DNA from: Eledone cirrhosa
Taxonomy: Eukaryota
Reading direction: 5' to 3'
Assembly: GCA_964016885.1 (NCBI GenBank)
Contig: OZ024741.1
Span: forward strand, 331,514,001 to 331,578,000
Length of the DNA: 64,000 nt
A program made the position numbers and the translations under genes. The notes beneath the pieces were generated by a model, which saw nothing but the letters and a program-made list of their open reading frames with translations, ran no database searches and was not told the origin of the DNA. Position 1 is the stretch's first letter, and each line of letters opens with the position of its first letter. Of the stretch, positions 7,911 through 57,331 are shown in pieces.

Positions 7911-8861
7911 GGTCACTCCTTTTTGTTTTCTTTCTGACTCATTTTTTTTTTTATTGATTTGCTTCTTTTGTAAATCATATTCATTATATAAATTGTACTT
8001 ATGTCCTAAATAAAATATTACACAGAAGAGAGGAAAAAACAAATTATATTTAAGTGAAACTACATTGTCATTATTGTATAGGCAATGCATTTAATACCGA
8101 TATGCTTTGAGGTGTTATTTTTGAGTCATACACCATTTATGTTCTTGCAAAACAGTATACATATATATATATATATACACATGCACATATCTAGGCACAT
8201 ACATATATGCATGCTTATATACATATACACTTACATACATATATATACCTACATACATATATATATATATACATACATACATGCTTACATACATATAAAC
8301 ATATATACATACACAGACACATGCACACAACACATACAGGCACATACACACATAACACATGCACACACACATACACACACAGTCACATGCATACAGAGAC
8401 AAATACACATACACACACATAGACACACACAGACAAAACACACACAGCTACATAGACACACACACACATACACACGCACATTAGCATTAAACTAACAACA
8501 TTAATCATAATTTGTTTTTGTCTGATTCTGTGAGTATACAGCTGAAACTCCTGAGCAACAAAACTCATCACTTTGCCATAATATAGAATAGTTGTATGTA
8601 TGTATTGTGTTGTATGTATGTAACATGTATGTAACATGGCCACTGTCACCATGCCAACAATGAAATCATATCCGCTCTCTTGCTCTGGAACCCTGACTCC
8701 AGCCTGACTAGGAGTAGGAAGCTGTCATTCCCTGACGTTATCTCTAGGGATACGGGAATCAGTAGACAGGACCTGGGGGTAGCGATGGGGGACAGGGAAT
8801 TCTGGGGCATGAGAGTGAGATCCATCATCTCGACAGTAGTCGACGAATGATGATGATGATG

Positions 8862-9390
8862 ATGTAACATGTAACCCAGTACAACCTGTCGTATGGTCGG
8901 GTCGTCGGCGACTAAACTGGCAACCCCACCAAGTTTACTTGGTGAAGGAGGGTGATTTTGGACACCCTGCGGGACAAAAAGCAAAACCTTACAAAGAGCG
9001 GAAGAACTCATAAGAGACAAACGGGCATCCGAAAGTGTGTAAATATGTATATACACATGTATATATGTGTGTATGTACATGTATACATATGTATATATAT
9101 ATATGCGTGGGGACAGAAATAATTGGACTGGATACCCAATTACGTGGTTAAATCACTGGGAGTGAAGGACCCCTAGCCTTTGTCAGGGCATTTTTCTAGG
9201 AGAAGGCAACTCAGGAAACTGGGATAACTCTGATATAAAACCTGTGGCTCAGTAGTTACATATGATGTTGATCTTTTCTTCTTTTCAGGTTATAGCTAGT
9301 GTCGCTCAGAGAGTGGGATTGGCTCAGTGCACAGTCTTTCCTCACTTTAAAAAAAATCTTTATGTACAGGCATTGCACGATAGCGTTAAT
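8862..9390 (+). mobile_element. Non-autonomous structured repeat (RTE 5'UTR-like motif), interrupted by microsatellite
   Basis: Homologous to 19484-20040, 22700-23303 and 63385-63582; TCTAGGAGAAGG motif. Confidence 0.65.
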
Positions 9391-12814: not shown

Positions 12815-13197
12815 TGTATAAACGTTTGTATTTGTAAAGCCAAAACAATGCAGGTATGGACATAGAATATAAATACAAATGCAAAAGATATTGTTGACAA
12901 TTAGTCTTTTACCTTAAATTTATGTAAATGTCCTTAATTTTCGAGATAATATCTCTTCTTCAGAGGGAAGTAAAGCGGTTAAACCAGCGTTCTAAATAGC
13001 TGACTTGGCAAGCTATTTAGAACGCTGGTTTAACCGCTTTACTTCCCTCCGAAGAAGAGATATTATCTCGAAAATTAAGGACATTTAAATAAATTTAAGG
13101 TAAAAGACTAATTGTCAACAATATCTTTTGCATTTGCATTTATATTCTATGTCCATACCTGCATTGTTTTGGCTTTACAAATACAAATGTTTATACA
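12815..13197. mobile_element. Near-perfect ~187-bp-arm palindrome, family C, with a hammerhead in each arm
   Basis: Arms 12815-13001 and 13011-13197 with a 9-nt spacer; TA flanks. Confidence 0.85.
12932..12966 (-). ncRNA. Minimal type I hammerhead ribozyme
   Basis: CCT-CTGAAGA-A-GAGAT ATT ATCTC-GAA-AATT-A-AGG; palindromic stem III; the mirror copy at 13046-13080 has CCGAAGA. Confidence 0.75.
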
Positions 13198-17685: not shown

Positions 17686-18041
17686 TTGTCACATAATATT
17701 CCATTACTCTCTCTCACTCTATATCTATCTACCTACCTTCTCCCTCTCTATCTATCTACATATCACTCTCACTCTCTCTCTCTATCTATTTACATATCAC
17801 TCTCACTCACACACTCTCTATCTACCTATCACTCAATCTATCTACCTATCACTCTTACTCTCTCTCTCTCACTCTCTCTCTCTCTCTCTCTCTCTCTGTA
17901 AATCTATATTCCACACTTGCTACACATTAATAAATATACTGTCTGCCCACTTACACCACTGGGATTAGTTTTTTTCTCTTCCTCTTCACTCTCTCTACTG
18001 CCATCTCCCCCACAGAGACCAATTATACATACATATATATG

Positions 18042-18212
18042 TATTTTAATTTTGTCTCATATAAAATAATACAACTGGCTATCCACAAAATACGTATAGT
18101 TAGCACCCCAAACGTATAACTGGGATTATACTAAGGTATATCCTAATGTTTGTTGAGTGAGACGGAAGCCGGTCAGAGTATTGCTTAAAGCTTTCTCTGT
18201 TAATGTATTAAA
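18042..18212 (+). mobile_element. 3' tail of hammerhead element family E
   Basis: Near-identical reverse complement of 41900-42070; TA flanks. Confidence 0.8.
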
Positions 18213-18230
18213 TATATATAAATATATATA

Positions 18231-26409: not shown

Positions 26410-27255
26410 CTATACGACGTGCTCGGAGAAACTCTAGGCATAAAGGAGGACGAACTGGCCAGTACTGTTTGGTAGGACCTTCCGCCCAGGACCGATGGAC
26501 AACTTCCAAAAGTCCCTGGCCTGGCAGTGCTACCGAGGAGCTCCACCAGTTCGAGACAAGTTCTACAGACACGGGCGCCCGGGCAGGGACCCTTCGAAAA
26601 AGATCTGTCCGAGATGCATGCGCGATGAGGAAACCGTCGCGCACGCATTTGTACACTGCCCAGGCGTTACCAAACTGTGGAGCTATGTAGAATGACTATT
26701 GTCGCAGGTGAGACCAATCCAGTTGACCACCGAGTCCATTGTCATGATCAAACCGCCACCCTCCTTCAAAAACGAAGGAGAGTCGGTTTTCCTATGTGTT
26801 ATGACCATGGTGAAAGAGGTTATATGGTGGACGAGGTTAAAAGGGCTGAGGTCAGACACCTTTCTCTCCGGCGAACAACTGATTTGTTTTTTTCAAATAT
26901 CATTTTGGAAGAAGAATCAGGATGGTGAGAGAGGTGCTGTACCCCAGCAAATTTTATAAAAGTGGGTGAATGTGGCAAAGATGGCCTGAGTGGTTGGGCC
27001 TTCTCTCTATATAAGCCTGTAGGCTGAGGAAAAAGAGGAAGAGAGGAAGGGAATACTCACTCTTGGTGCTCCTGGAGATGAGGGTTGTACATTTTTTTGG
27101 GGTGTGTACAACCCCTGTGTAACGCCTCCCCCCTATTGGGGATTTCAACTGTTATTTGTTATTTTATTAATAGTTTTATTTTCATATACCTGTATGTAAA
27201 CTCCCCATTTGTATTTGTCCCCTTCTTTTGTGCCCTTGTGGCTAATAAAGAAATT
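26410..27255 (+). mobile_element. Tx1/L1-like non-LTR 3' fragment in (CTAT)n
   Basis: LAWQCYRGAPPV...CPRCMRDEETVAHAFVHC...LW (zf-RVT-like), AATAAA at ~27244, (CTAT)n on both sides. Confidence 0.75.
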
Positions 27256-27304
27256 TATCTATCTATCTATCTATGTATCTATCAATATATATATATATGT
27301 ATGT

Positions 27305-27520
27305 AAAAGGTAAACAGAAATAACAACACAATCAGTACAGTATATGGAAGGGATATATTAGGTTAACGCTTGATATAGCAGGAAGAGGGTCTTAACGTTT
27401 CAGACGCTAGTCTTTCATCAGAAGAAAGAATGAGAAATATAATAGGTTGAGGGGACGGGCGGGATGGAATTGGAAAAAAATGTCTTTAGATAAAAGGTCC
27501 ATTCATGTTGACATCTCTTG
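27305..27520 (-). mobile_element. Hammerhead element family F, copy 1
   Basis: Reverse-complement homolog of 31578-31798. Confidence 0.85.
27390..27425 (-). ncRNA. Minimal type I hammerhead ribozyme
   Basis: TCTT-CTGATGA-A-AGAC TAGC GTCT-GAA-ACGT-T-AAGA. Confidence 0.85.
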
Positions 27521-28077
27521 CAATATGTATGTATGAGTGTGTTTGTGTATGTGTATTGTGTACTAAACATAGAGGATATGCAAGACATATATATATATAT
27601 ATATTGGTATATATATATATTTATATATACAAAGAGAGAAAGAGAGAGATTCTGATAACAATGGCAGCAACATTTTAACATTTGTCTGCTGAGAAAATAG
27701 CTTGAGCAAAGAAGCAAAGAATAGTTCTTTGTCAAGCTGTAAAACAAAATTTGATTTCCGAATAAGCTCACTGATTTGAAACCAGAAGGTGTTTAATTCT
27801 TCCAGGCACCCCCCCCCTCTTCCTCTTACATTGAATTATTAAGGGAAATTGCATTGTAATAGGAGAAGACATCCTAAATCTTGTTGATACATAGCATTGT
27901 TCTGTTGTGAATCAAACAGAGTAATCAAAGCCCTTAATAGAGTTAGCAAAGTTTTATAAATAAATAAATAAATAAAAATATCTCTTAACTAGATATTCAA
28001 GTACAAGTGACATATTGTAATGAAATAAATATATAAGAAAGAAGAATGTTGTATGCTGAACAAGATTTGCTGTGAAA

Positions 28078-28294
28078 TATGAGTGTTGGCTGAAAAGTTC
28101 ATGAGCTGAAAAGTTCATAGGCTGACCAATATATGCTCATGGAATGACCAAATGAAGGTTATTTTTCAACATAGTCCCTAGAAGGAAACAATGCAGTTAT
28201 TTATAAGAAGAGTTGAAATTAATGTATGCAAGATTTCACAGCTCTAGCATCACTCTTTCATAGTCAGCCTATGAACTTTACAGCTAACCCTCAT
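28078..28294. mobile_element. Mariner-type MITE
   Basis: TATGAG.GTTGGCTGAAAAGTTCAT / ATGAACTTTACAGCTAACCCTCATA TIRs; homolog of 7140-7338. Confidence 0.8.
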
Positions 28295-29600
28295 AAATGT
28301 AAAGCTAGATAGACAGACATAACACCTTAAAACCCAAGCTAAATGAGAAATTTCACTGATTGATAATTATTCCTGAAGGGAGGAAGATAGTCATGAGAAT
28401 TTCATTGTTATGTTCTTTTTTTTTTTTTTTTAAAACTTTTATTGATATTTTCTACTAGAATTCCAATAATTTGGTACTAAATAGATTTCTGAAACTTTGG
28501 TTAGATTTTCACATGTAAAGCAAGTGTAATTTACTATAAATGTTATTATAAAAAAAACTTAGATACATAATTGTTTTTCCCCAAAGTTTGAATAAGAGTT
28601 GATTATAGAAATGCCTCAGCATGATCTCAGTCAAACCAGTAAAACAGTATAAAAGTGTGAGCATTGAGATAAAACAATCATAAAAACTTGGGTTGATGCA
28701 ACACTATATTAGCTGAAAGGAAAGAGATGTTTGTTGAATTTTGTAACATTGAATATTTTATATTTAAGTTCAAAATTTGAAAATAAAGTATATATTGTTG
28801 TAATATTGTTTACACTTTTACAAAATTATAGGTATATTTACAAAATTCTAGATAATTTTTCACTAAAACTGTGTTTATTTTTTATTAAAATTGTAGAAAT
28901 ATATTTACAAAATTGTGGATATCTATACAAAATTGTAGATATATTTACCAAATTGTTGCTATTTTTCAAATTTGTATTCTTTCATTACACTATTTCTATA
29001 GAAGACACTGCCTATGGTTTTCAACTAATTTGGAAAATAATCGTGAATGGAAAGGATTTACAAATATAACTGACGTTCTCTTAAGCTGGTGTTTGGAACT
29101 TACATGAAAATATGAGTGAAGGTTTTTAGATAGAAGCACTTAAAAACAAATAGTTGTATCATACCCTTGCAAGCAGGGAAAAGCGGACATAAAATGAAGT
29201 GAAATTAATGAAATGAACCAGAAGGCAGTTTGGTATAAAGAAGGTTAACAAAATTGAAGATATTTGTACGAAATTTATATATCTTTACAAAGTTGTAGAT
29301 ATTATGAATAAAATTGTAGACATTTGTAAAATGTTTTGATATACTTACAAAAAAATTTAGCTAATTTTATAAAATTATATTTTTTATAAAATTGTTAATA
29401 TATATTTTTCATCAAAATTCGTGGTATATTTATAAAATCGTCAATATTTTCGCTAAAACTATAGCAATGTTTTTACAAACTGAAAATGTTCTTACAAAAT
29501 TGAAAGCAATTTTGACTGTGAACAAAATTATGAATTATTTTAACCAAATGGAAATGTAGTGGATTTGGTTAATTATTTTTCACATATCTATTTGTCTTTA

Positions 29601-29942
29601 TGGTGGCAAATTGGCAAAGTCATTAAAACGTCAGATAGAATGCTTTATGGTATTTGTTTTGGTTCTTTGCTCACTGAGTTCAAATCCTGTTGAGATCAAC
29701 TTTGCCTTTCATCCAATTGAGGTCGATAAAAAAATACAAGTCAAGTATTAGGATTGATTCTTCCTCTATGTCTCCTTCTCACTTCCATTCTCTCACTCTC
29801 TATTCCCCTCTAGAAGAAATCTATTGTATTCAGACCTGGAAAAGACATGGGCTCTGTCAGGCTTAAAGGAAATGCCCTAGAAATGCTGTTTGTCAATATG
29901 GTGTCCCTACAACTCACTCGGGAGCTACAGGACCATGCATAC
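29601..29942 (+). mobile_element. tRNA-headed SINE, long-tail subfamily
   Basis: Homologous to 3432-3740 and 61705-61998. Confidence 0.8.
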
Positions 29943-30509
29943 TTTTGTCTTTATATATATATATAAATATCAAGAGGATTAACAGTTTTAAACTAGTAAG
30001 ACCATTATGCAGTAGAGGATTCAATATTTGGGATAAAGAAGTGTAAATATATTAGAGAGTCGGGGCCCAACAGCTGAACTCTTGCTGTTTTGACTGTTAT
30101 CTGCTGTCACCCTCAGTGGAAAATATATACTCCTAAGATTATCTATTATATGACGGGTATCACTCCAGTTGTTAACAGTTCTTTATGCTTCAAATATTAT
30201 GCTGTTATGAAAAGAAAACAAAATTTGAAAGTTTGGACATACTTTAAGATTTTGTTATGCCTCATCATTATTTCATGCAAGAGTTATTGATATTTGAATA
30301 AAGTATATATATATATGTGTATGTATATAGTTTACATTCTGTGTTATGGCACAGACAGGTTATTGGTTTTGTTCCCTGTATATGTCAACACATAGAGGTT
30401 GAAGCTGAACATAAACCATACTGATGTTAGTAACATGGAAAGACATGAAATAGATGATGATTCTTCCTCTCCTCCTGAATAAGACATAAAAAAACCCTTT
30501 GTTATGACT

Positions 30510-30782
30510 AAAAAGTCTAAAGTCTCAAGCCTGGAGGCTCATCAGGCCAGTGCTTATCTCAGTAACTGAGATTACAAGACCCCCATCCTGGACAAAATGC
30601 TAGTCCATCACAGGGTTAAAACCCTGGCTATTGCTGGTACTCATTTTCAGCTGAATATACTGGAGCAATGTAAAATGAAGTGTTTTTGTTCAAGAACACA
30701 AAATACAACCCAGTCTAGGAATCGAGCCCACAATATTATGATCGTATATCCAACACCCTTACCACTAGGCCACATGCCTCCA
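30510..30782 (-). mobile_element. tRNA-headed SINE with Nin/Deu-like central domain
   Basis: GGCTCATCAGGCC.GTGCTTATCTC..TGCTAGTCCATCACAGGGTTA..GCTGGTACTCATTT..CAAGAACACAA; partial copy at 37860-38028. Confidence 0.65.
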
Positions 30783-31577
30783 CTTAAGACTAAGAGATAA
30801 AAAAAACCTTTGTTATGATGTCCTAAATAATTTATTATGACAGAATTTTGGCAGTAGTTTCCAGTTTTTTCACTAACAAAGAACCCTTATCTCTAAATGA
30901 ATTTTTCTTTCCTGACTCTAATGACCTCTCTTCTAGATAACAATTTAGGGTTAGGGTTAATCAGTAAGAATAATAATCAAACACGTGTTTTCCAGGATAT
31001 ATTCTGGACATCTCCCAGCAATAGTATGAATGTGCCATTAATCCAGCTTCTGAGTGTTTTTGTTAGTGACCATAACTCACATTCACAGACGAGAATGGAC
31101 TCAACTGTTGCTTTGAGTAGCCTCATTTTCATTCTTTTCTTGATCAAAGATACCCATACCTTTGATAGGGAGTTGAGAGCTTCCTATGCCTTTCCTGTCC
31201 TGGTGAACAGACATAGCAAATAAATCGCTCTACAGTTCACACCCTCATCTTTCTGATATTATAAGGAGATGGAGCCTTGCATTAGAGGGATATGTGAAAT
31301 GTCACAATGAACCTGCTGGTAGATTTCTTTTCTGGAAACCAGATGTATGCAGATGAGTTGGGAGACCAACCATCACACTGAAGGATAGTCTTGAAGATGA
31401 CACCAGGTTGGAAGCAGGGAAATTCAGATGGCAATGCTCGAAAAGGTGAGCTGGAGGAGGAACTTTGTCATGGCACCGGTAACAGATGTAAAGAAGAAGT
31501 AGAAGAATATATATATATGCATAAATTAACATCTTTTTATATATTATTATAAAACAGCATAAACAAGTTTGTGTGTG

Positions 31578-31798
31578 TAAGAGATGTCAACATGAATGGA
31601 CCTGTTATTTTTATCTAAAGACATTTTTTCCAATTCCATCCCGCCCATTCCCTCAATCTATCTTATTTCTCATTCTTTCTTCTGATGAAGGACTAACGTC
31701 CGAAACGTTAAGACCCTCTTCCTGCTATATCAAGCGTTAACCTAATATATACTTTCTATATATTGTGGTGATTGTGTTGTTATTTCTGTTTACCTTTT
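31578..31798 (+). mobile_element. Hammerhead element family F, copy 2
   Basis: Homolog of 27305-27520; ends ..TTTACCTTTT into TA; isolated 3' tip also at 47580-47608. Confidence 0.85.
31678..31713 (+). ncRNA. Minimal type I hammerhead ribozyme
   Basis: TCTT-CTGATGA-A-GGAC TAAC GTCC-GAA-ACGT-T-AAGA; stem II covaries with the copy at 27390. Confidence 0.85.
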
Positions 31799-31802
31799 AT
31801 AT

Positions 31803-31859
<57 letters not shown>

Positions 31860-31903
31860 GGTATGTATATATATATAGATGTGTCTTAGCACATATAAGC
31901 TCA

Positions 31904-31991
31904 CGTATCTGATGAGATATCGAAAAAGAGTCTAGGCTCCGCCACTTTGATTGTACCGTGAGCTGATTGATTTCGAACCAATTGTAATATG
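31904..31991 (+). ncRNA. Degenerate hammerhead with enlarged stem II (family G, element ~31877-32166)
   Basis: CGTAT-CTGATGA-GATATCGA..TTGATTTC-GAA-(C)CAATTGT-A-ATATG. Confidence 0.5.
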
Positions 31992-32684
31992 CAAATAAAG
32001 CCTGTACATATGCTGCAACACTGACTTTGAATCTTTTAAATCTATTTACACTCTGCACACTACAGCCCTAATACTGGAATACAACCCAAACAAAATGGAC
32101 CTCATCACAGAATTGAGTGCTTCGAACGGTGTGCCACCTGTAACTGTTATTATACATTAAACTAACACACACATATATATATATATACCATTTATGTTGT
32201 GTGGTTTAGCAGTGGGTAGAACTGGTCATTACAGTTAGTAAACCAAGATGAATAAATTAAAGCATTCAACATTATGCAAATCATCTATCATAGATGTGGT
32301 ATCCCATGGCTAGTGCAGGAACAGAGTTAAATATTCATTTAAAATCAACAGTAGGCCGGACTGGAAATATTCTTTTAAAGTTTTAATGTTGTAATGTTGT
32401 TAAAACGCTCTATATATTTCAATGGCCTAGTTACCTCTTCTCATCATTATGTAAGACTTTGACAATTTCATCAGGTGTAGATTGCAAAATTAGCTAATTC
32501 ATAACAGGATTATGGCAAACACAAACAGGCCTGCAAATTTAGTGTTATGTTATGGCAAACCATCTCTGAATATATATATTATCATCATAATCATTGTTGT
32601 TTTAACATCCATGCTTTCCATGCTAGCAAGGATATCATCATCATGTACGTCCGTTCTTCCACGCTAGTTGTGGGACTGGTACAT

Positions 32685-41646: not shown

Positions 41647-41846
41647 ACTAGAAATTGATTAACATATATATAAACATGAATAATCACAGGAGATAATTTT
41701 TACAAGTGTGTAACCACACATAGCTAGGTAGGTAACTACTCGTTAGAATCTTAGAGCTTATTTTCCGGGTGATATGGCGCATGTCTTTCTGGCATGACAC
41801 CCATAATTTTGATTTAGATTAAATTCATTTAATTTATCTTAATTTT

Positions 41847-41899
<53 letters not shown>

Positions 41900-41903
<4 letters not shown>

Positions 41904-42243
41904 ATACATTAACAGAGAAAGCTTTAAGCAATACTCCGACCGACTTCCGTCTCACTCAACAAACATTAGGATATACCTTAGTATAATCCCAATTATACGT
42001 TTGGGGTGCTAACTATACGTATTTTGAGGATAGCCAGTTGTATTATTTTATATGAGACAAAAATTAAATACATCTCTCTTTCCAAACGATCGTTTCATTA
42101 TAAGTTTTCTACAAGTTGGGAAAATAATGTCCAGGTTATGTAGAAGCCTACACCTAGTCTATAGGAATATATGCAGGTGGGCACTTATAAATCATCAGTG
42201 GATGCCCAACAATATCGATATAAAAAAAACCCTACCGATATTG

Positions 42244-42247
<4 letters not shown>
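41900..42247 (-). mobile_element. Hammerhead element family E with ribozyme and tail
   Basis: TA-flanked; tail shared with 18042-18212. Confidence 0.8.
42081..42202 (-). ncRNA. Type I hammerhead with large branched stem II
   Basis: TCCA-CTGATGA-T TTATAAGT [~80 nt, two hairpins] ACTTATAA T-GAA-ACGATCGT-T-TGGA. Confidence 0.75.
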
Positions 42248-42274
<27 letters not shown>

Positions 42275-44482
42275 CCAGTTAACTTAGTGTATATGGTACA
42301 CCAATCCCAGACTAAAAAAATGAAATATATTCAACACTATTACTATCAATATTGAGGGCACTGATCTACACATTTCTAATGACACACTGCATCTGAATTA
42401 ATGAAGAATTTTGAGTGATTTACTAAAATTATTAATTATTTCATTACAATGCTATAAATGTGGTTGGCATTAGGGAGGGCATCCAGCCAGAAAAAAAACA
42501 AGCCAGAAACAGTTCTGCATGGGACAACTTGTCTAACCTATACAAGTAAGGAAAAATGGGCATTAAACAGTGATGGTGATGATATCATGGTCTTTATAAC
42601 GAGAAGTTCTTATATAAAATTATGTTAGAAGATTTGGATTTAAATAGGAACCCTTTAACCCTTTTTATATAACTGCTGGTAACCATCCCTGGTTCTACGA
42701 AATAAAACTTTTTATTCTAAAGTTTTTCAATTTATCTAAAAACTTTAGAATAAACAGTGTTCTATGCTCTACCGATTCTGCCTTAAACACCTCAATAATA
42801 ATTGTTTCTACTTTTGGCGCAAGGCCAGCAATTATCCCAGTGTATTACTGGTACTTTATTTTATCGATAATGACACTGGTCCACTATCATATACAACATA
42901 TATAACACCACACATACTTTACAGCAGTGTTCTGCCAAATTATTCTGGGGTTTCACAAAATAAGGTGTCTTTCAATAGAATTTAATAAAAAATATATCTG
43001 TGTTCTGTTTTTTGTTCATATGAATAAATTCTCTCTCTAAGACACCATCATCATCATCATCATCATCTTCGTTTAATGTCCATTTTCCACCCTAGCATGG
43101 GTTAGACACTACTGTTGAATTAAATTTGGTGGGGATTGTTGATAAAATATGATTTAGCAGAAAATATCTAAAAGCTGACCTCGAGAAGGATGAGCCCCCT
43201 TCAGGCTTAAAATGCCCAAGAAACACTTTATGACCCTATGACTCCATCAAGAGTTACGGGACCATGCATGCATATAAAAGCTGGTTTCTTAATTCAAATA
43301 TATAGTGTCTCTACTAGTGGACAGATCTTTAATTCTTAATGTGATTCAGTCATTGTGTGTGTGTGTGTGTATGTGTATCTGTTGAGTGTGTGTGTCTGTT
43401 TGTATGTGAGTGTGTGTTTGCATGTGTCTTGTAGCTTTTTGTTTCAGCAAAATTAAAGTAGATTGATAAAATAAGTACCAGGATCGTAAAATAAAAGAAA
43501 GAAAAAAGATTCAAGTTGATATGATCAACTAAACCAAGATGGTGCCCCAGCATAGCCACAGTCTAACTAACTGAAACCAGTAAAAGTGTAAAAAGAAGGG
43601 TAAACTCTCCTACAAAACTTACTGGCCAATGTGAAGAGTATCCATATTTCTGACTGTCCTTCCTAGTATAGAGGGTATTACAGTATCTCTCTCTCTCTCT
43701 CTCTCTTTTATTTTCCTTTTCTCTCTTACTCTATCACTTATCTCATAACAAGTGACAGATTCATACACACCCATATGTACACATGCACCAACTCGCACAC
43801 ACACATACAGACACGCACACATACGCACAGATAAATGCACAAAGACACAAACACACACATCCACCCATATATCCACATACACACAAATGCACAAACACAC
43901 AAACACACACATGCACATGCTCACACACACATACACACACAAAGGGTTACTAGCACTTCCAAAATCTCAATATACAATGGTAAAAAGACAAAACACACAC
44001 AGACAAATGCACAAAGACCAAACACTAACACAAACACATGCACATACACATACACACATACACACTTACAGAGAGAAAGAAAGAGAAAGGGGAGAGAGAT
44101 GGGGAGGGGGGAGAGAAAGGGATGTAACTGGCACTTCAAAACCCAATATAATATGGTAAAAGACCAAACGCAACCATACAAGACAAAAATAGAAGAACAA
44201 AACACAAAAAACAGGAGCCAAATTGTTAATCTCTATTGGATGGAAAACCTTTGCCCAACATGCCAGGAGATAATCCCTTGTATCATGTGACAAAAACTGG
44301 GAGATTAAAGACAAGGGGACGATAAAAATAATATTTATAATATTTTTATTATTAATATAAAATGTTTATATTCACACACACAGACATAGGCATTCATAGA
44401 TATACATATTTATACATGTATTAATGTATACATATATGTTTATTTACGTTAGTGTGTGTATATGTGTGTATGTGTGTGTGTT

Positions 44483-54009: not shown

Positions 54010-54105
54010 CACGCACCACCATTGCTATTACGTGGACCAATCATAAAACAGAGCCCCCACGCATCACCAGTATTATTACGCGGACCAATCAGAAGCCAGA
54101 GGCCT
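54010..54105 (+). promoter_or_regulatory. Duplicated ~48-bp unit with CCAAT boxes in the RTE 5'UTR (putative internal promoter)
   Basis: TATTACG(T/C)GGACCAATCA occurs twice. Confidence 0.4.
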
Positions 54106-54208
54106 ATACTATCGCTTGCCTGGTTGCCTTTCGATATATGATGGATGGATGGACTGCAGAATCCTGGAGAGTGGAGGAGAGAGAGAAAAATCTGGACGCT
54201 CAGCGACA

Positions 54209-57200
54209 ATGCCAAAGATAAAGACAAATTCACCTCTTGGACGAGAATGCGAGCACTCCTCATTGTTTCGACCGCGGACGGCTAACATAACCCCATCGCC
54301 CCCCGCCCCCCACCGCCCCCAACCCCCAAACGCAATCCAAAACTTCAGAGTTGGTACCATAAATGTAGGCACACTAAAGGGTCGCGCTAACGAGGTTGTA
54401 GAAATGCTTGAACGTAAGGAGGTCGATGTTTGTTGTATTCAAGAGACCAGGTGGAGGGGTGGGTCTGCTAGGTTCATTGAGGGTAAAAAACGATGTTATA
54501 AGCTTTTCTGGGTGGGAAACGACGATGGGCTGGGTGGAGTAGGAATCATGGTAGCAGAAAAGTGGGCAGATAAGATAATAGACGTAAATAGAGTGAACGA
54601 CAGAATAATTAAAATACGACTTGTCCTCAATAGAACTACGGTGACAGTAATATCTGCGTACGCACCCCAATCCGGACTGCCCGGCACTATAAAAGACAGA
54701 TTCTATGAGACACTGATGCTAACTACCTCCCAAATATCCGACAGTGACTATATAATTATCGCAGGCGACCTAAATGGTCACGTTGGACAACATTGTGACG
54801 GCTACGACGAAATCCATGGAGGCTATGTGATGCAAATAACCTAACTATCTGTAACACTAACTTCAAAAAACGTGACAATCACCTGATCACCTATAGATCC
54901 GGGGAACACACAAGCCAGGTAGATTATATCCTTACCAGAAGACGTGACAGAGTGTCTGTTGTAAACACTAAATCCCTCCCCCATGAAGAATGCACCTCCC
55001 AACATAGACTGATAATTAGCGACCTCATAGTCAGGACGAGACGTACTCGACAGCAGAAGAGGACTATCCTCAGGAGAAAAATATGGAAGCTAAAGGACCC
55101 CACAGCCAGGAATAAATTTCAAAGCATATTACTTGATGCTTTCGACAGTAAGGAAGAACATTTAGAGTCGGACAATATAGAGGGAGAGTGGGAATTTCTG
55201 AAAGCAAACCTGCTGTTGGCGACAGACGAAGTCTGTGGCTGGAGCAGGCCTGTAGGCAGGAGGAGAGTAACATGGTGGTGGAACAGTAAGGTGGAGGGGT
55301 CAATTAAGGCCAAAAAGCAGGCTTGGAAAGTATGGCGGGATGGGGGAAGTAGAGAAGACTATCAAGTGGCCAGGAGGGAAGCTAGGAGACAAGTGTACTT
55401 AGCAAGAAGGGAAGCTGAGGAAAGAAAGTTCAAGCATGTTCTACAACGCGATGACCAAAAACGTGAGGTGTTCAGGATTGCTAGGCAATGCGTCAAGGAA
55501 AACCGTGATATTGTCGGGGAGAAGTGTGTACTAAACGACGATGGCACACTTGCCATCACCAACGCTGATAAGAAGGTAGCTTGGAAGTGTCACTATGAAA
55601 GGCTACTAAATGAGGAGAATAAATGGGAGAAAGACAGTCTCCCCCATATCGACCCAATAGAGGGACCAGCAGTGTTAGTCGAGGGGAGTATAATAAGTAA
55701 GGCAATCAAGGATATGAAGACGGGTAAGGCGGCTGGGCCTTCGGAAATAGTTGCTGAGATGCTGAAGGCATCTGGCACGGTGGGACACACCATGGTCACC
55801 CGCATAGTTAACCAAGTCGTACAGAATGGGGTTGTTCCGAAGGACTGGCATAGCAGCATCATCGTTAACTGTTATAAGGGTAAAGGAGACGCCCTAGATA
55901 GGAGTAACTATAGAGGCATTAAATTAATCGACCAGGTCATGAAGGTCACGGAAAAAGTAATAGCGCAACTAATCAGAGAGAGAATTGACCTAGATGAAAT
56001 GCAGTTCGGGTTTGTGTCAGGCAAAAGTACCACAGACGCTCTTTTCATAGTACGACAACTACAGGAGAAGTACCTAGCTAAAGGTAAACCCCTCCACTTA
56101 GCTTTTGTCGACTTGGAGAAAGCCTTCGACAGAGTCCCCCGCTCCATTATCTGGTGGGCTCTTAGAAAACTAGGCGTTGACGAATGGCTTGTGAGGGCTA
56201 TACAAGCCATGTATAAAGAAACAGTCAGCAAGGTTAGAATTAACAACGAATATAGTGAAGAGTTTAGCGTAAAAGTTGGCGTCCATCAGGGCTCTGTTCT
56301 CAGCCCACTACTATTTATTATTGCCCTTCAGGCTATAACAGAGGAGTTCAAGACAGGCTGCCCATGGGAACTCCTATACGCAGACGACCTGACACTCATA
56401 GCGGAATCAATGGCCGAGCTAGAGAAGAAATTCCAAACATGGAAGCACGGCCTAGAGTCAAAAGGACTTAAAATTAACCTGGCTAAGACCAAAGTACTAG
56501 TTTGTAGGAAAGAAAACAAGGCGGCGGTCCCTTCTGGGAAATGGTCGTGCTCGGTGTGTAGTAAAGGCGTAGGTAGAAACTCCATTTTATGTCCTAAATG
56601 CAAAGTATGGGTGCATAAAAGATGTAGTGGGATCCCAGGTAAGCTAACTAAGAACAGATTTTACATGTGGCCGGTGCTCTGGTGCAATAAGTAGCAGCAA
56701 GTGCCCACAAAATACTAGCTCTTTCAATTGCGCAGAGGGTTCTATAGAAATAGTGGACAGCTTCCGTTACCTGGGCGATAAAATCAGCAGTGGGGGAGGG
56801 TGCTCTGAAAGTACTGTAGCTAGAGTCAGAACTGGTTGGAAAAAGTTCAGAGAGCTTATACCACTATTAGCTGCTAAAGGGTTCTCCCTAAAAATGAAAG
56901 GCAGGTTGTACGATGCCTGCATACGAACAGCAATGCTGCATGGCAGTGAGACCTGGGCATTGTGTGCAGAGGATATACGCAGACTAGAGAGGAACGAAGC
57001 TTGCATGCTCCGCTGGATGTGTAACAGTAATATACGTGAACGGCAAAGCATAAACGAACTAAGGAAAAAATTAGAGATAAGAGGGATCAGATGTTGTTTA
57101 CTCGAGAGAAGGCTACGTTGGTATGGACACGTGATGCGCATGAAAGTCGATAGCTGTATAACAAAGTGCAGGGCAATAAAGATAGACGGTAGTCACGGAA

Positions 57201-57331
57201 TAGGCAGACCTAGAAAAACCTGGGACGAGCTGATAAACTCCGACATCACACACTTACACCTCTCCAAGACAATGTCACTGGACCGAGACCTTTGGCGGTA
57301 CTCAGTAACAGAGAAGACCCGCCTTACCTAA
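54209..57331 (+). pseudogene. APE-RT ORF with two lesions (deletion ~54828, frameshift ~56655)
   Basis: GTINVGTL, CCIQETRW, SAYAP, GDLNGHVG, DYIL, FVDLEKAFD, VHQGSVLSP, YADD, FRYLG, RLRWYGHV, GRPRKTW. Confidence 0.9.

Follow-up and report, generated by a model that had tools for sequence, protein, structure and literature searches.

Hammerhead ribozymes are known from Penelope-like elements and from animal retrozymes, and the part that they play in the life cycle of these elements is unsettled. A stretch of 64,000 nucleotides (nt) of the Eledone cirrhosa genome (GenBank assembly GCA_964016885.1, contig OZ024741.1, forward-strand positions 331,514,001 to 331,578,000; called the window here, with positions counted from its first letter) contains at 42081-42202 a sequence in which the two halves of a hammerhead core are parted by a long insertion. 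The locus raises the question of whether such a sequence is a hammerhead at all and, if it is, whether it cuts the RNA of the element that carries it. We consider it very likely that 42081-42202 is a real hammerhead sequence of the Penelope type. With the balance of the evidence somewhat in favor, we read it as a type I hammerhead of the Penelope-like-element kind, carried in sense orientation by an abundant non-coding retroelement with (TA)n as its target, and predicted to cut the RNA of this element after GUU. We also lean, on the strength of genomic copies, toward the view that this cutting occurs in vivo and that an excess of copies starting just past the predicted cut would be the footprint of the ribozyme.

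A hammerhead core parted by a branched helix II

Read along the minus strand, 42081-42202 consists of UCCA, CUGAUGA, U, UUAUAAGU, 77 further nt, ACUUAUAA, U, GAA, ACGAUCGU and U, followed by UGGA, and the predicted cut lies after GUU, between 42085 and 42084. The topology is that of type I, with helix I open and helices II and III closed. The parts of the motif are as follows, with the basis of each assignment in brackets.

42081..42202, minus strand: whole type I hammerhead motif, 122 nt (sequence; sole descriptor match in the window)
42199..42202, minus strand: 5' strand of helix I, UCCA, pairing with UGGA at 42081-42084 (sequence, RNAfold)
42192..42198, minus strand: core positions C3 to A9, CUGAUGA (sequence)
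42183..42191, minus strand: U10.1 (42191) and the 5' strand of helix II, UUAUAAGU (42183-42190) (sequence, fold)
42106..42182, minus strand: 77-nt insert in place of loop 2 (predicted three-way junction)
about 42147..42177, minus strand: hairpin 1 (fold prediction)
42107..42145, minus strand: hairpin 2, UUCUACA/UGUAGAA plus an inner loop (fold prediction)
42097..42105, minus strand: 3' strand of helix II, ACUUAUAA (42098-42105), and U11.1 (42097) (sequence, fold, alignment)
42085..42096, minus strand: G12, A13 and A14 (42094-42096), the helix III palindrome ACGAUCGU (42086-42093) and U17 (42085) (sequence)
42081..42084, minus strand: 3' strand of helix I, UGGA, the first bases of the predicted 3' cleavage product (sequence)

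The core (C3 U4 G5 A6 N7 G8 A9 and G12 A13 A14) is complete, with CUGAUGA at 42192-42198 and GAA at 42094-42096. The A15.1-U16.1 pair is present (A at 42093, U at 42086), and position H17 is occupied by a non-G base, U17 at 42085. The core halves are 95 nt apart, and an extra U follows A9. An earlier note on this DNA, which left the strand unstated, had described a perfect core, a stem I of TCCA/TGGA, a stem II with U.U at its base and a hairpin TTCTACA/TGTAGAA. All of these were recovered on the minus strand, namely CUGAUGA with GAA, UCCA/UGGA as a helix I of 4 base pairs (bp), UUAUAAGU/ACUUAUAA as a helix II of 8 bp over U.U, and UUCUACA/UGUAGAA as the stem of hairpin 2. The proposed 8-nt palindromic stem III held in part: the palindrome ACGAUCGU is there, but folded as a hairpin it gives just 2 bp (A-U and C-G) closed by a GAUC loop, and the 8-bp form requires two molecules. 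A second hairpin of the earlier note, CACCT/AGGTG, did not survive comparison with other copies, as it rests on a base that is private to the copy in the window (42154). The corresponding column holds U in 169 of 171 distinct instances of the family, a gap in 1 and G solely in the window, and in the contigs of sequencing run X1 the alternative base makes up 14161.3 of the depth of 14233.1 at this position. The family pairs hairpin 1 in another register, CCUGCAUAUA/UAUGUGUAGG, according to RNAfold of representatives.

CTGATGA alone occurs in the window at chance frequency (13 sites versus 11.59 expected). The motif was also sought with a descriptor that demanded the core, a helix II of at least 5 bp, no more than 160 nt between the core halves, a helix III of at least 2 bp, H17 and a helix I of at least 4 bp. 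Relaxed in this way for the length of helix II, as the earlier note had advised, the search returned a single match in the window, 42081-42202, and no match in 300 dinucleotide-preserving shuffles. RNAfold assigned the 122 nt a minimum free energy of -29.6 kcal/mol, with a z score of -3.5.

The repeat that carries the motif

The motif is one copy of a high-copy repeat, which the earlier note had not recognized. A search of the genome (2,995,841,428 bases in 1796 contigs) with 261 bases around the motif gave 2841 first-look candidates, and the 40 of them that were scored were 93-100% identical. The sense strand of the repeat is the minus strand of the window, where the following parts of it were located.

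41901..42242, minus strand: 5'-truncated copy of a non-coding unit of ~725 bp, subfamily A1, from AATATCGG to ...GTATTAAAT (comparison with 20 and 40 copies)
41849..41900, no strand: (AT)26 microsatellite at the 3' end of the element
42247..42274, no strand: (AT)14 target microsatellite at the truncated 5' end
18039..18213, plus strand: second copy of the element, reduced to the part after the predicted cut and starting 11 nt past it (ATGTATTTT...)

The full unit of subfamily A, ~725 bp, was defined on locus L113 and extends from ATTATACTCTTGAATTGG... to ...GTTAATGTATTAAAT; the unit of a sister subfamily, B, measures 994 bp (L150, 597-1590). The motif lies ~190 nt upstream of the 3' end of the unit. 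A 31-mer from the 3' end of unit A has 581 exact occurrences in the genome, and the corresponding 31-mer of subfamily B has 143. Neither unit, single or doubled, contains a stop-free frame of more than 60 codons (the longest have 59-60), and Rfam at a loose threshold returned from three full-length loci just microRNA look-alikes driven by the microsatellites. The copy in the window lacks the 5' part of the element and is therefore probably an inert relic.

Nearly all copies have (TA)n on both sides, those with truncated 5' ends included. Units also occur head to tail with no microsatellite between them (...GTATTAAAT directly followed by ATGTTACTC...), usually as a 5'-truncated copy and then a full one. 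Such partial-plus-full tandems made up 8 of 27 subfamily B insertions. They are present in subfamily A too, where a tandem was found in 6 of 100 places and single, truncated copies prevail. Insertion into (TA)n, 5' truncation, partial tandems and the lack of a reading frame together suggest that the carrier is a non-autonomous derivative of a (TA)n-targeting Penelope-like element. Targeting of (TA)n, truncated 5' ends, partial tandems like those of pseudo-long terminal repeats and a hammerhead close to the 3' end have been described together for Penelope-like elements and their non-autonomous relatives (PMC8557442, PMC4209133, bioRxiv 10.64898/2026.07.22.740005). A short interspersed nuclear element with a (TA)n tail, mobilized by a long interspersed nuclear element (LINE), was judged less likely in view of the (TA)n on both sides and the direct head-to-tail partial tandems. 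The window contains a LINE-like sequence at 54047-57331 (plus strand), with an endonuclease/exonuclease/phosphatase match (E 3e-10) followed by a reverse transcriptase match (E 2.3e-32) and a PHD finger.

Penelope-like elements are plentiful in this genome: with the Pfam GIY-YIG model, 10,598 first-look candidates were obtained, and 150 of the 150 that were scored exceeded the cut-off. As for an autonomous partner, none of 26 loci (12 + 14) around GIY-YIG matches, from a genome with more than 10,000 first-look candidates, resembled units A or B. A metagenome scan with the conserved 23-mer yielded no match.

The 171 distinct instances of the motif in the fetched loci fell into subfamilies A1, to which the window copy belongs, A2, A3 and B. 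Subfamilies A1 to A3 keep CUGAUGA, CGAUCG and the palindrome ACGAUCGU; in subfamily B, the core reads CUGAAGA, altered at the unconstrained position N7, and is accompanied by CAAUUG and the palindrome ACAAUUGU. Helix III thus remains an 8-nt palindrome between subfamilies through a double change. Among 65 aligned copies, the pair concerned was GC in 36, AU in 19, GU in 1 and another combination or unpaired in 9, and several of these 9 derive from a search that was aimed at the one-sided variant. In the same alignment, the four pairs of helix I were standard in 64 or 65 copies, the 8 pairs of helix II were 97.1% standard, and A15.1-U16.1 was standard in all 65. Pairing was found in 95.3% of the alignment cells, versus 34-50% when the partners were slid. 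Since the 65 sequences are closely related and were picked by a pattern that demanded near-intact ends, the alignment is consistent with the fold and is not proof of it.

The multibranched stem II of the earlier note was borne out by RNAfold, which predicted an 8-bp stem opening into two hairpins in the representatives of all four subfamilies (A1, A2, A3 and B) and in the window copy. Hairpin 1 showed changes from G.U to A-U and to G-C and double changes in single copies, and in subfamily B it has become longer via several changes. A B-like copy at L239 386-508 (plus strand), with CUGACGA, has exchanged A-U for U-A in hairpin 1, a double change that preserves the pairing, and may represent an additional subfamily. 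One contig that covers the whole motif comes from a second organism (run X4, record 22, 292 nt), and no difference in the core was listed for it. An unbiased sample of subfamily A included 47 copies spanning the motif; the core, helices I and II and the frame of helix III were unchanged in 25 of them, and 10 had lost the core pattern, as expected for decay after insertion.

Contigs of four sequencing runs, whose kind is unrecorded, showed variants but no ends or joints bearing on cleavage. Across 41880-42260, runs X1 and X2 (DNA or RNA, the kind being unrecorded) had a summed contig word depth of up to ~250,000 over both core-bearing ends and over 41958-41983, and one 10 to 20 times lower over the insert.

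Where truncated copies start

When a retroelement copy is made by target-primed reverse transcription, its start preserves the 5' end of the template RNA. We therefore examined the positions at which truncated copies of the element start, with +0 as the first base past the predicted cut. Our main sample comprised the first 100, in genome order, of the 581 places that contain the 31-mer of the unit A 3' end, and amounted to 99 independent insertions after one tandem pair was counted once. Starts between 0 and +11 numbered 22 when taken from the BLAST ends (P 3e-17) and 15 when the ends were pulled back over flanking TA runs (P 6e-10), versus 1.74 expected. The interval from 0 to +25 held 26 to 27 of the 99 starts (3.77 expected). 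In contrast, the 36 nt before the cut received 2 starts and the last 14 of them none, and no other 12-nt bin contained more than 5. The flanks of these copies all differ.

The excess was also seen in other samples. Among 30 truncated copies of subfamily A collected independently of the main sample, with an 83-mer from the 3' end, 7 start in the 12 nt past the cut (0.81 expected, P 2e-5). For subfamily B, a first sample had 3 of 27 insertions starting at 0 to +25. A second, independent sample of 60 places, 5 of which were dropped as the upstream copy ran off the fetched stretch, had 12 of 55 in this interval (1.5 expected, P 7e-8). Furthermore, we carried out a pattern census, which looked for (TA)3 followed within 13 nt by element sequence and read the starts from the matched strings. 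It gave 27 distinct loci (54 matches) in which the element part begins from +0 to +10. With the next anchor upstream, 15 loci were obtained (39 matches), 6 of them starting exactly at the first base past the cut and 9 spread over the 14 bases before it; one further locus starts exactly at +0 in the census with the first anchor. Copies that begin precisely at UGGA are represented by L237, by L127/L094 and by the 6 census loci. Two other counts were not retained. An initial sample, in which 11 of 29 loci started within 13 nt past the cut, was biased by the edge of the query and served as a lead only, and a census of (TA)3 before GTCTCATATAAAATAA (317 matches) was set aside as uninterpretable, being inflated by TA-like sequence of the element and by other subfamilies. 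The short copies share the polymorphisms of the long ones in similar proportions, which suggests that they are by-products of the same source RNAs and not a separate short element.

A mechanism can be proposed in which transcripts of full or tandem units fold the hammerhead, and the weak helix III would be completed by the palindrome of a second motif or, alternatively, by a bound protein of a Penelope-type element. The cut would then likely be made as a pair of molecules or with the help of protein. It would release a 3' fragment of ~190 nt that keeps the 3' end needed for target-primed reverse transcription, and this fragment could be copied into (TA)n after losing a few 5' bases or by joining at its first TA-like patch (ATGTAT in subfamily A, ATATAT in subfamily B). 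Such loss or joining would explain why few starts lie at the cut itself and the majority 2 to 22 nt past it. The insert occupies the position of loop 2, where minimal hammerheads without loop-loop contacts should tolerate extra structure. Several steps have published counterparts. Dimer action through a palindromic helix III has been demonstrated for hammerheads of newts and viroids and proposed for those of Penelope-like elements (PMC4209133), and an element of the anole has a protein-assisted ribozyme (PMC11167929). U10.1-U11.1 is found in natural hammerheads and is the best-tolerated mismatch (PMC3088659), and U.U at 10.1-11.1 occurs in natural hammerheads that are active (PMC3088659, PMC7229834).

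A number of observations weigh against cleavage by this motif. In its structure, the G10.1-C11.1 pair, the most conserved pair of helix II, is absent and replaced by U.U (42191/42097), and helix I has only 4 bp. The single-molecule hammerhead fold (-23.2 kcal/mol) is 6.4 kcal/mol less stable than the minimum-energy fold (-29.6), which pairs GAUGAU of the core with GAUCGU of helix III; in subfamily B, where this strong alternative pairing is absent, the values are -24.2 for a hammerhead-compatible fold and -24.9 for the minimum. No Rfam family reached its gathering score anywhere in the window, and the Rfam hammerhead models gave no match up to E 10 in 41800-42500. The lack of a hammerhead match is a failed test, yet an expected one given the 77-nt insertion, and the earlier note had foreseen that length-limited descriptors would miss this architecture. 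Covariation is thin: 4 of 39 pairs showed double changes, and 50 of 500 shuffles reached the same number. Between subfamilies, helices I and II and the hairpin 2 stem are invariant and therefore uninformative either way, and the change that preserves the palindrome is weak support, since two CpG decays keep a palindrome half the time. Nor is the hammerhead, though well conserved, better conserved than some other blocks when units A and B are compared, with 20-23 of 25 positions identical per 25-position step in the hammerhead and 25 of 25 at, for example, unit positions 321-346.

The starts themselves carry difficulties of the same sense. In the main sample, 1 of 99 lies exactly at the cut and most of the others in the zone follow at a distance of 2 to 22 nt, a TA-like patch holds many of those at +10 to +17, and subfamily B has two starts just upstream of the cut, at -8 and -2. 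A further, weaker cluster of starts, ~200-280 nt before the cut, has no ribozyme. Finally, published Penelope-type hammerheads cleave poorly in vitro (PMC4209133), and in the one purified system the hammerhead was dispensable for insertion and RNA sequencing showed no ends at its site (PMC11167929). Of the zone ~200-280 nt upstream, in which the window copy begins (42242), part consists of sequence that is not TA-like (GGCGGUCACUCUAACACUGACGGG...).

The dispersal of starts over ~25 nt, where a ribozyme would leave one base, and their scarcity at the cut would suit a different origin, in which the motif is real but nearly inert and the starts mark an internal transcription start zone of the 3' module, a promoter region like that of a pseudo-long terminal repeat (pseudo-LTR), which adjoins the motif by chance. 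Internal promoters have been described for the pseudo-LTRs of Penelope-like elements (PMC8557442, for Penelope and Chlamys). We nevertheless hold this explanation to be unlikely. The onset in subfamily A coincides with the predicted cut to the base, as 15 to 22 starts occupy 0 to +11 and the 14 nt before the cut have none; +0 is a local maximum of the census, with 6 to 7 loci compared with 0 to 1 at -1, +1 and +2; and the chance that such a zone would begin there is ~5 in 700 positions. This exact onset and the +0 maximum, together with the zone of subfamily B, also count against another account, namely that reverse transcriptase stops at the 3' base of the stable minimum-energy fold, which pairs the whole 122 nt, so that the fold would matter and catalysis would not. 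In subfamily A, that fold is closed by UCCA/UGGA and by GAUGAU/GAUCGU and has its 3' base at +3, and 7 of the 15 starts of 0 to +11 are at +2 to +6, as a stop there would predict. Subfamily B, however, shows the same zone without the strong alternative pairing, no comparable excess is seen just 3' of other predicted stable hairpins of the unit, and the starts extend to +25, far from the base of the helix. A stop of reverse transcriptase therefore seems to us quite improbable as the source of the excess.

The chance frequency of CTGATGA leaves room, in principle, for a chance look-alike within a transposable element that plays no structural or catalytic part, with the excess of starts produced by microhomology of TA-like sequence to the (TA)n target alone. 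Many of the starts at +10 to +17 do fall in the ATGTAT and ATATAT patches, and a TA-rich patch ~220-235 nt before the cut collects 7 of 30 starts. Microhomology thus accounts for some of the zone. It does not account for starts from +0 to +9, which lie in TGGAAAGAGG, a sequence without TA-like letters, and other TA-rich patches of unit B received 1 to 2 starts each versus 8 at +11 to +18. A look-alike is further at odds with the absence of full descriptor matches from the 300 shuffles, with the location of the motif on the sense strand, with an architecture that fits the published hammerheads of Penelope-like elements (PMC4209133) and with the occurrence in the same genome of two unrelated motifs of the same build (long helix II, palindromic helix III; see below). 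We regard it as very improbable.

Comparable motifs and their meaning

The closest published counterparts are the minimal and small-helix-III hammerheads that metazoan Penelope-like elements carry in their pseudo-LTRs (Cervera and de la Pena 2014, PMC4209133), for which a helix I of 4-5 bp, a helix II of 7-8 bp, a palindromic helix III and dimer action are described. The E. cirrhosa motif resembles them in its type I topology, short helix I and long helix II, in the extra nucleotide after A9 (between 9 and 10.1), in its palindromic 15.2-16.2 pair plus loop 3, in its place near the 3' end of an element with partial tandems and in its high copy number. It differs in having a 77-nt domain of two hairpins within a motif of 122 nt, whereas theirs have a small loop 2 in a motif of ~40-50 nt, and in having U.U in place of the highly conserved G-C at 10.1-11.1. 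In addition, the carrier is non-coding, and theirs lie in the pseudo-LTR of an element with a reverse transcriptase and a GIY-YIG endonuclease.

Palindromic helices III are common to the hammerheads of Penelope-like elements and of animal retrozymes (PMC4209133, PMC7229834). Like the animal non-LTR retrozymes (Cervera and de la Pena 2020, PMC7229834), the E. cirrhosa repeat is non-coding, AT-rich and non-autonomous and has one type I hammerhead per unit, and a link of retrozymes to Penelope-like elements has been proposed (PMC7229834; Li, Clavereau and Pollet, bioRxiv 10.64898/2026.07.22.740005). The axolotl hammerhead HHR_Amex2 shares with the motif both the basal U.U of helix II and a helix III of 2 bp capped by a tetraloop (PMC7229834). 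Retrozymes, in contrast, measure 150-450 bp and form dimers to large multimers; the units described here measure 725 and 994 bp and are mostly single, truncated or arranged as one partial and one full unit. With the Penelope-like clades Naiad and Neptune, which target (TA)n (Craig et al. 2021, PMC8557442), the repeat has in common a strong (TA)n bias and partial tandems like those of pseudo-LTRs. Some elements in that study contain hammerhead core halves 35-50 nt apart, too far for current descriptors, and in the available part of the paper these were not shown to form full hammerheads. In the literature searched, outside which lay the supplementary files of PMC8557442, we found neither a hammerhead with a multi-helix domain in helix II nor an excess of copy starts at a hammerhead cut.

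Within the 26 Penelope-centered loci, we found two more hammerhead-like motifs that are unrelated to this one and likewise combine a long helix II with a palindromic helix III. Both would pass stricter thresholds, at which the 300 shuffles had 0 matches. The first, in L183 (7975-8094, minus strand), is a 120-nt motif with an 8-bp helix II on an insert of ~75 nt, the palindrome ACACGUGU and a 5-bp helix I, and a long (TA)n-rich tract follows 45 nt after its end. The other is an 80-nt motif that occurs twice in L185 (6895-6974 and 7354-7433, plus strand), 459 bp apart, with a helix II hairpin of ~45 nt and ACCGUCGGU as helix III, downstream of an open frame of 844 codons with a GIY-YIG match at its end. 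Other hammerhead motifs were also present. Four identical 45-nt motifs spaced by ~480-510 bp in L193 (8168-9697, plus strand) look like a tandem array of the retrozyme type. A small family, AGUCA CUGAAGA GGUCAC...GUGAC GAAAGAACU, lies beside unrelated loci (L150 128-190, L180 ~1031-1073 and L183 ~8823-8867).

The window itself includes two classic minimal hammerheads of Penelope type, 31682-31705 (plus strand) and 27398-27421 (minus strand), inverted and 4.2 kb apart, with CUGAUGA, a bulged A, a 4-bp helix II and GAAACGUU; the 10.1-11.1 pair differs between them, G-C in the former and A-U in the latter. The region around them (27000-32200) contains one stop-free frame of at least 120 amino acids and no Penelope-type open reading frame. 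A third minimal hammerhead-like motif, at 12939-12963 (minus strand), has CUGAAGA, a bulged A, GAGAU/AUCUC and GAAAAUU. All three have the bulged A followed by G-C, A-U or G-C at 10.1-11.1, and none has U.U, so that the likeness to a family A drawn in the earlier note has no counterpart among them.

An insertion that parts a hammerhead core has a precedent in mammalian messenger RNA, where the Clec2 hammerhead of the 3' untranslated region, reportedly described by Martick et al. in 2008, is said to have its core halves separated by a long insertion in helix I. The two are alike in that a complete core is split by a long insertion closing a helix, which in E. cirrhosa is helix II of a retroelement. 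A more far-reaching idea, which we put forward tentatively and ourselves doubt, is that hammerheads whose helix II has swollen into a folded domain of 50-95 nt constitute a hidden working class in Penelope-derived elements, missed by descriptors and covariance models. If this were true, it could explain why hammerheads were reported to be absent from certain (TA)n-targeting Penelope-like lineages, and the accumulation of copy starts at the predicted cut would be the first footprint in a genome of in vivo cutting by such a ribozyme. Since a full hammerhead can hide behind a branched helix II insertion of 77 nt, surveys that found no hammerhead in some Penelope-like lineages may undercount them. 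The positions at which copies start offer a cheap computational test of ribozyme processing in vivo for any high-copy retroelement that bears a ribozyme, and the excess of starts in two subfamilies makes the cutting of a hammerhead in the animal directly testable in Eledone cirrhosa.

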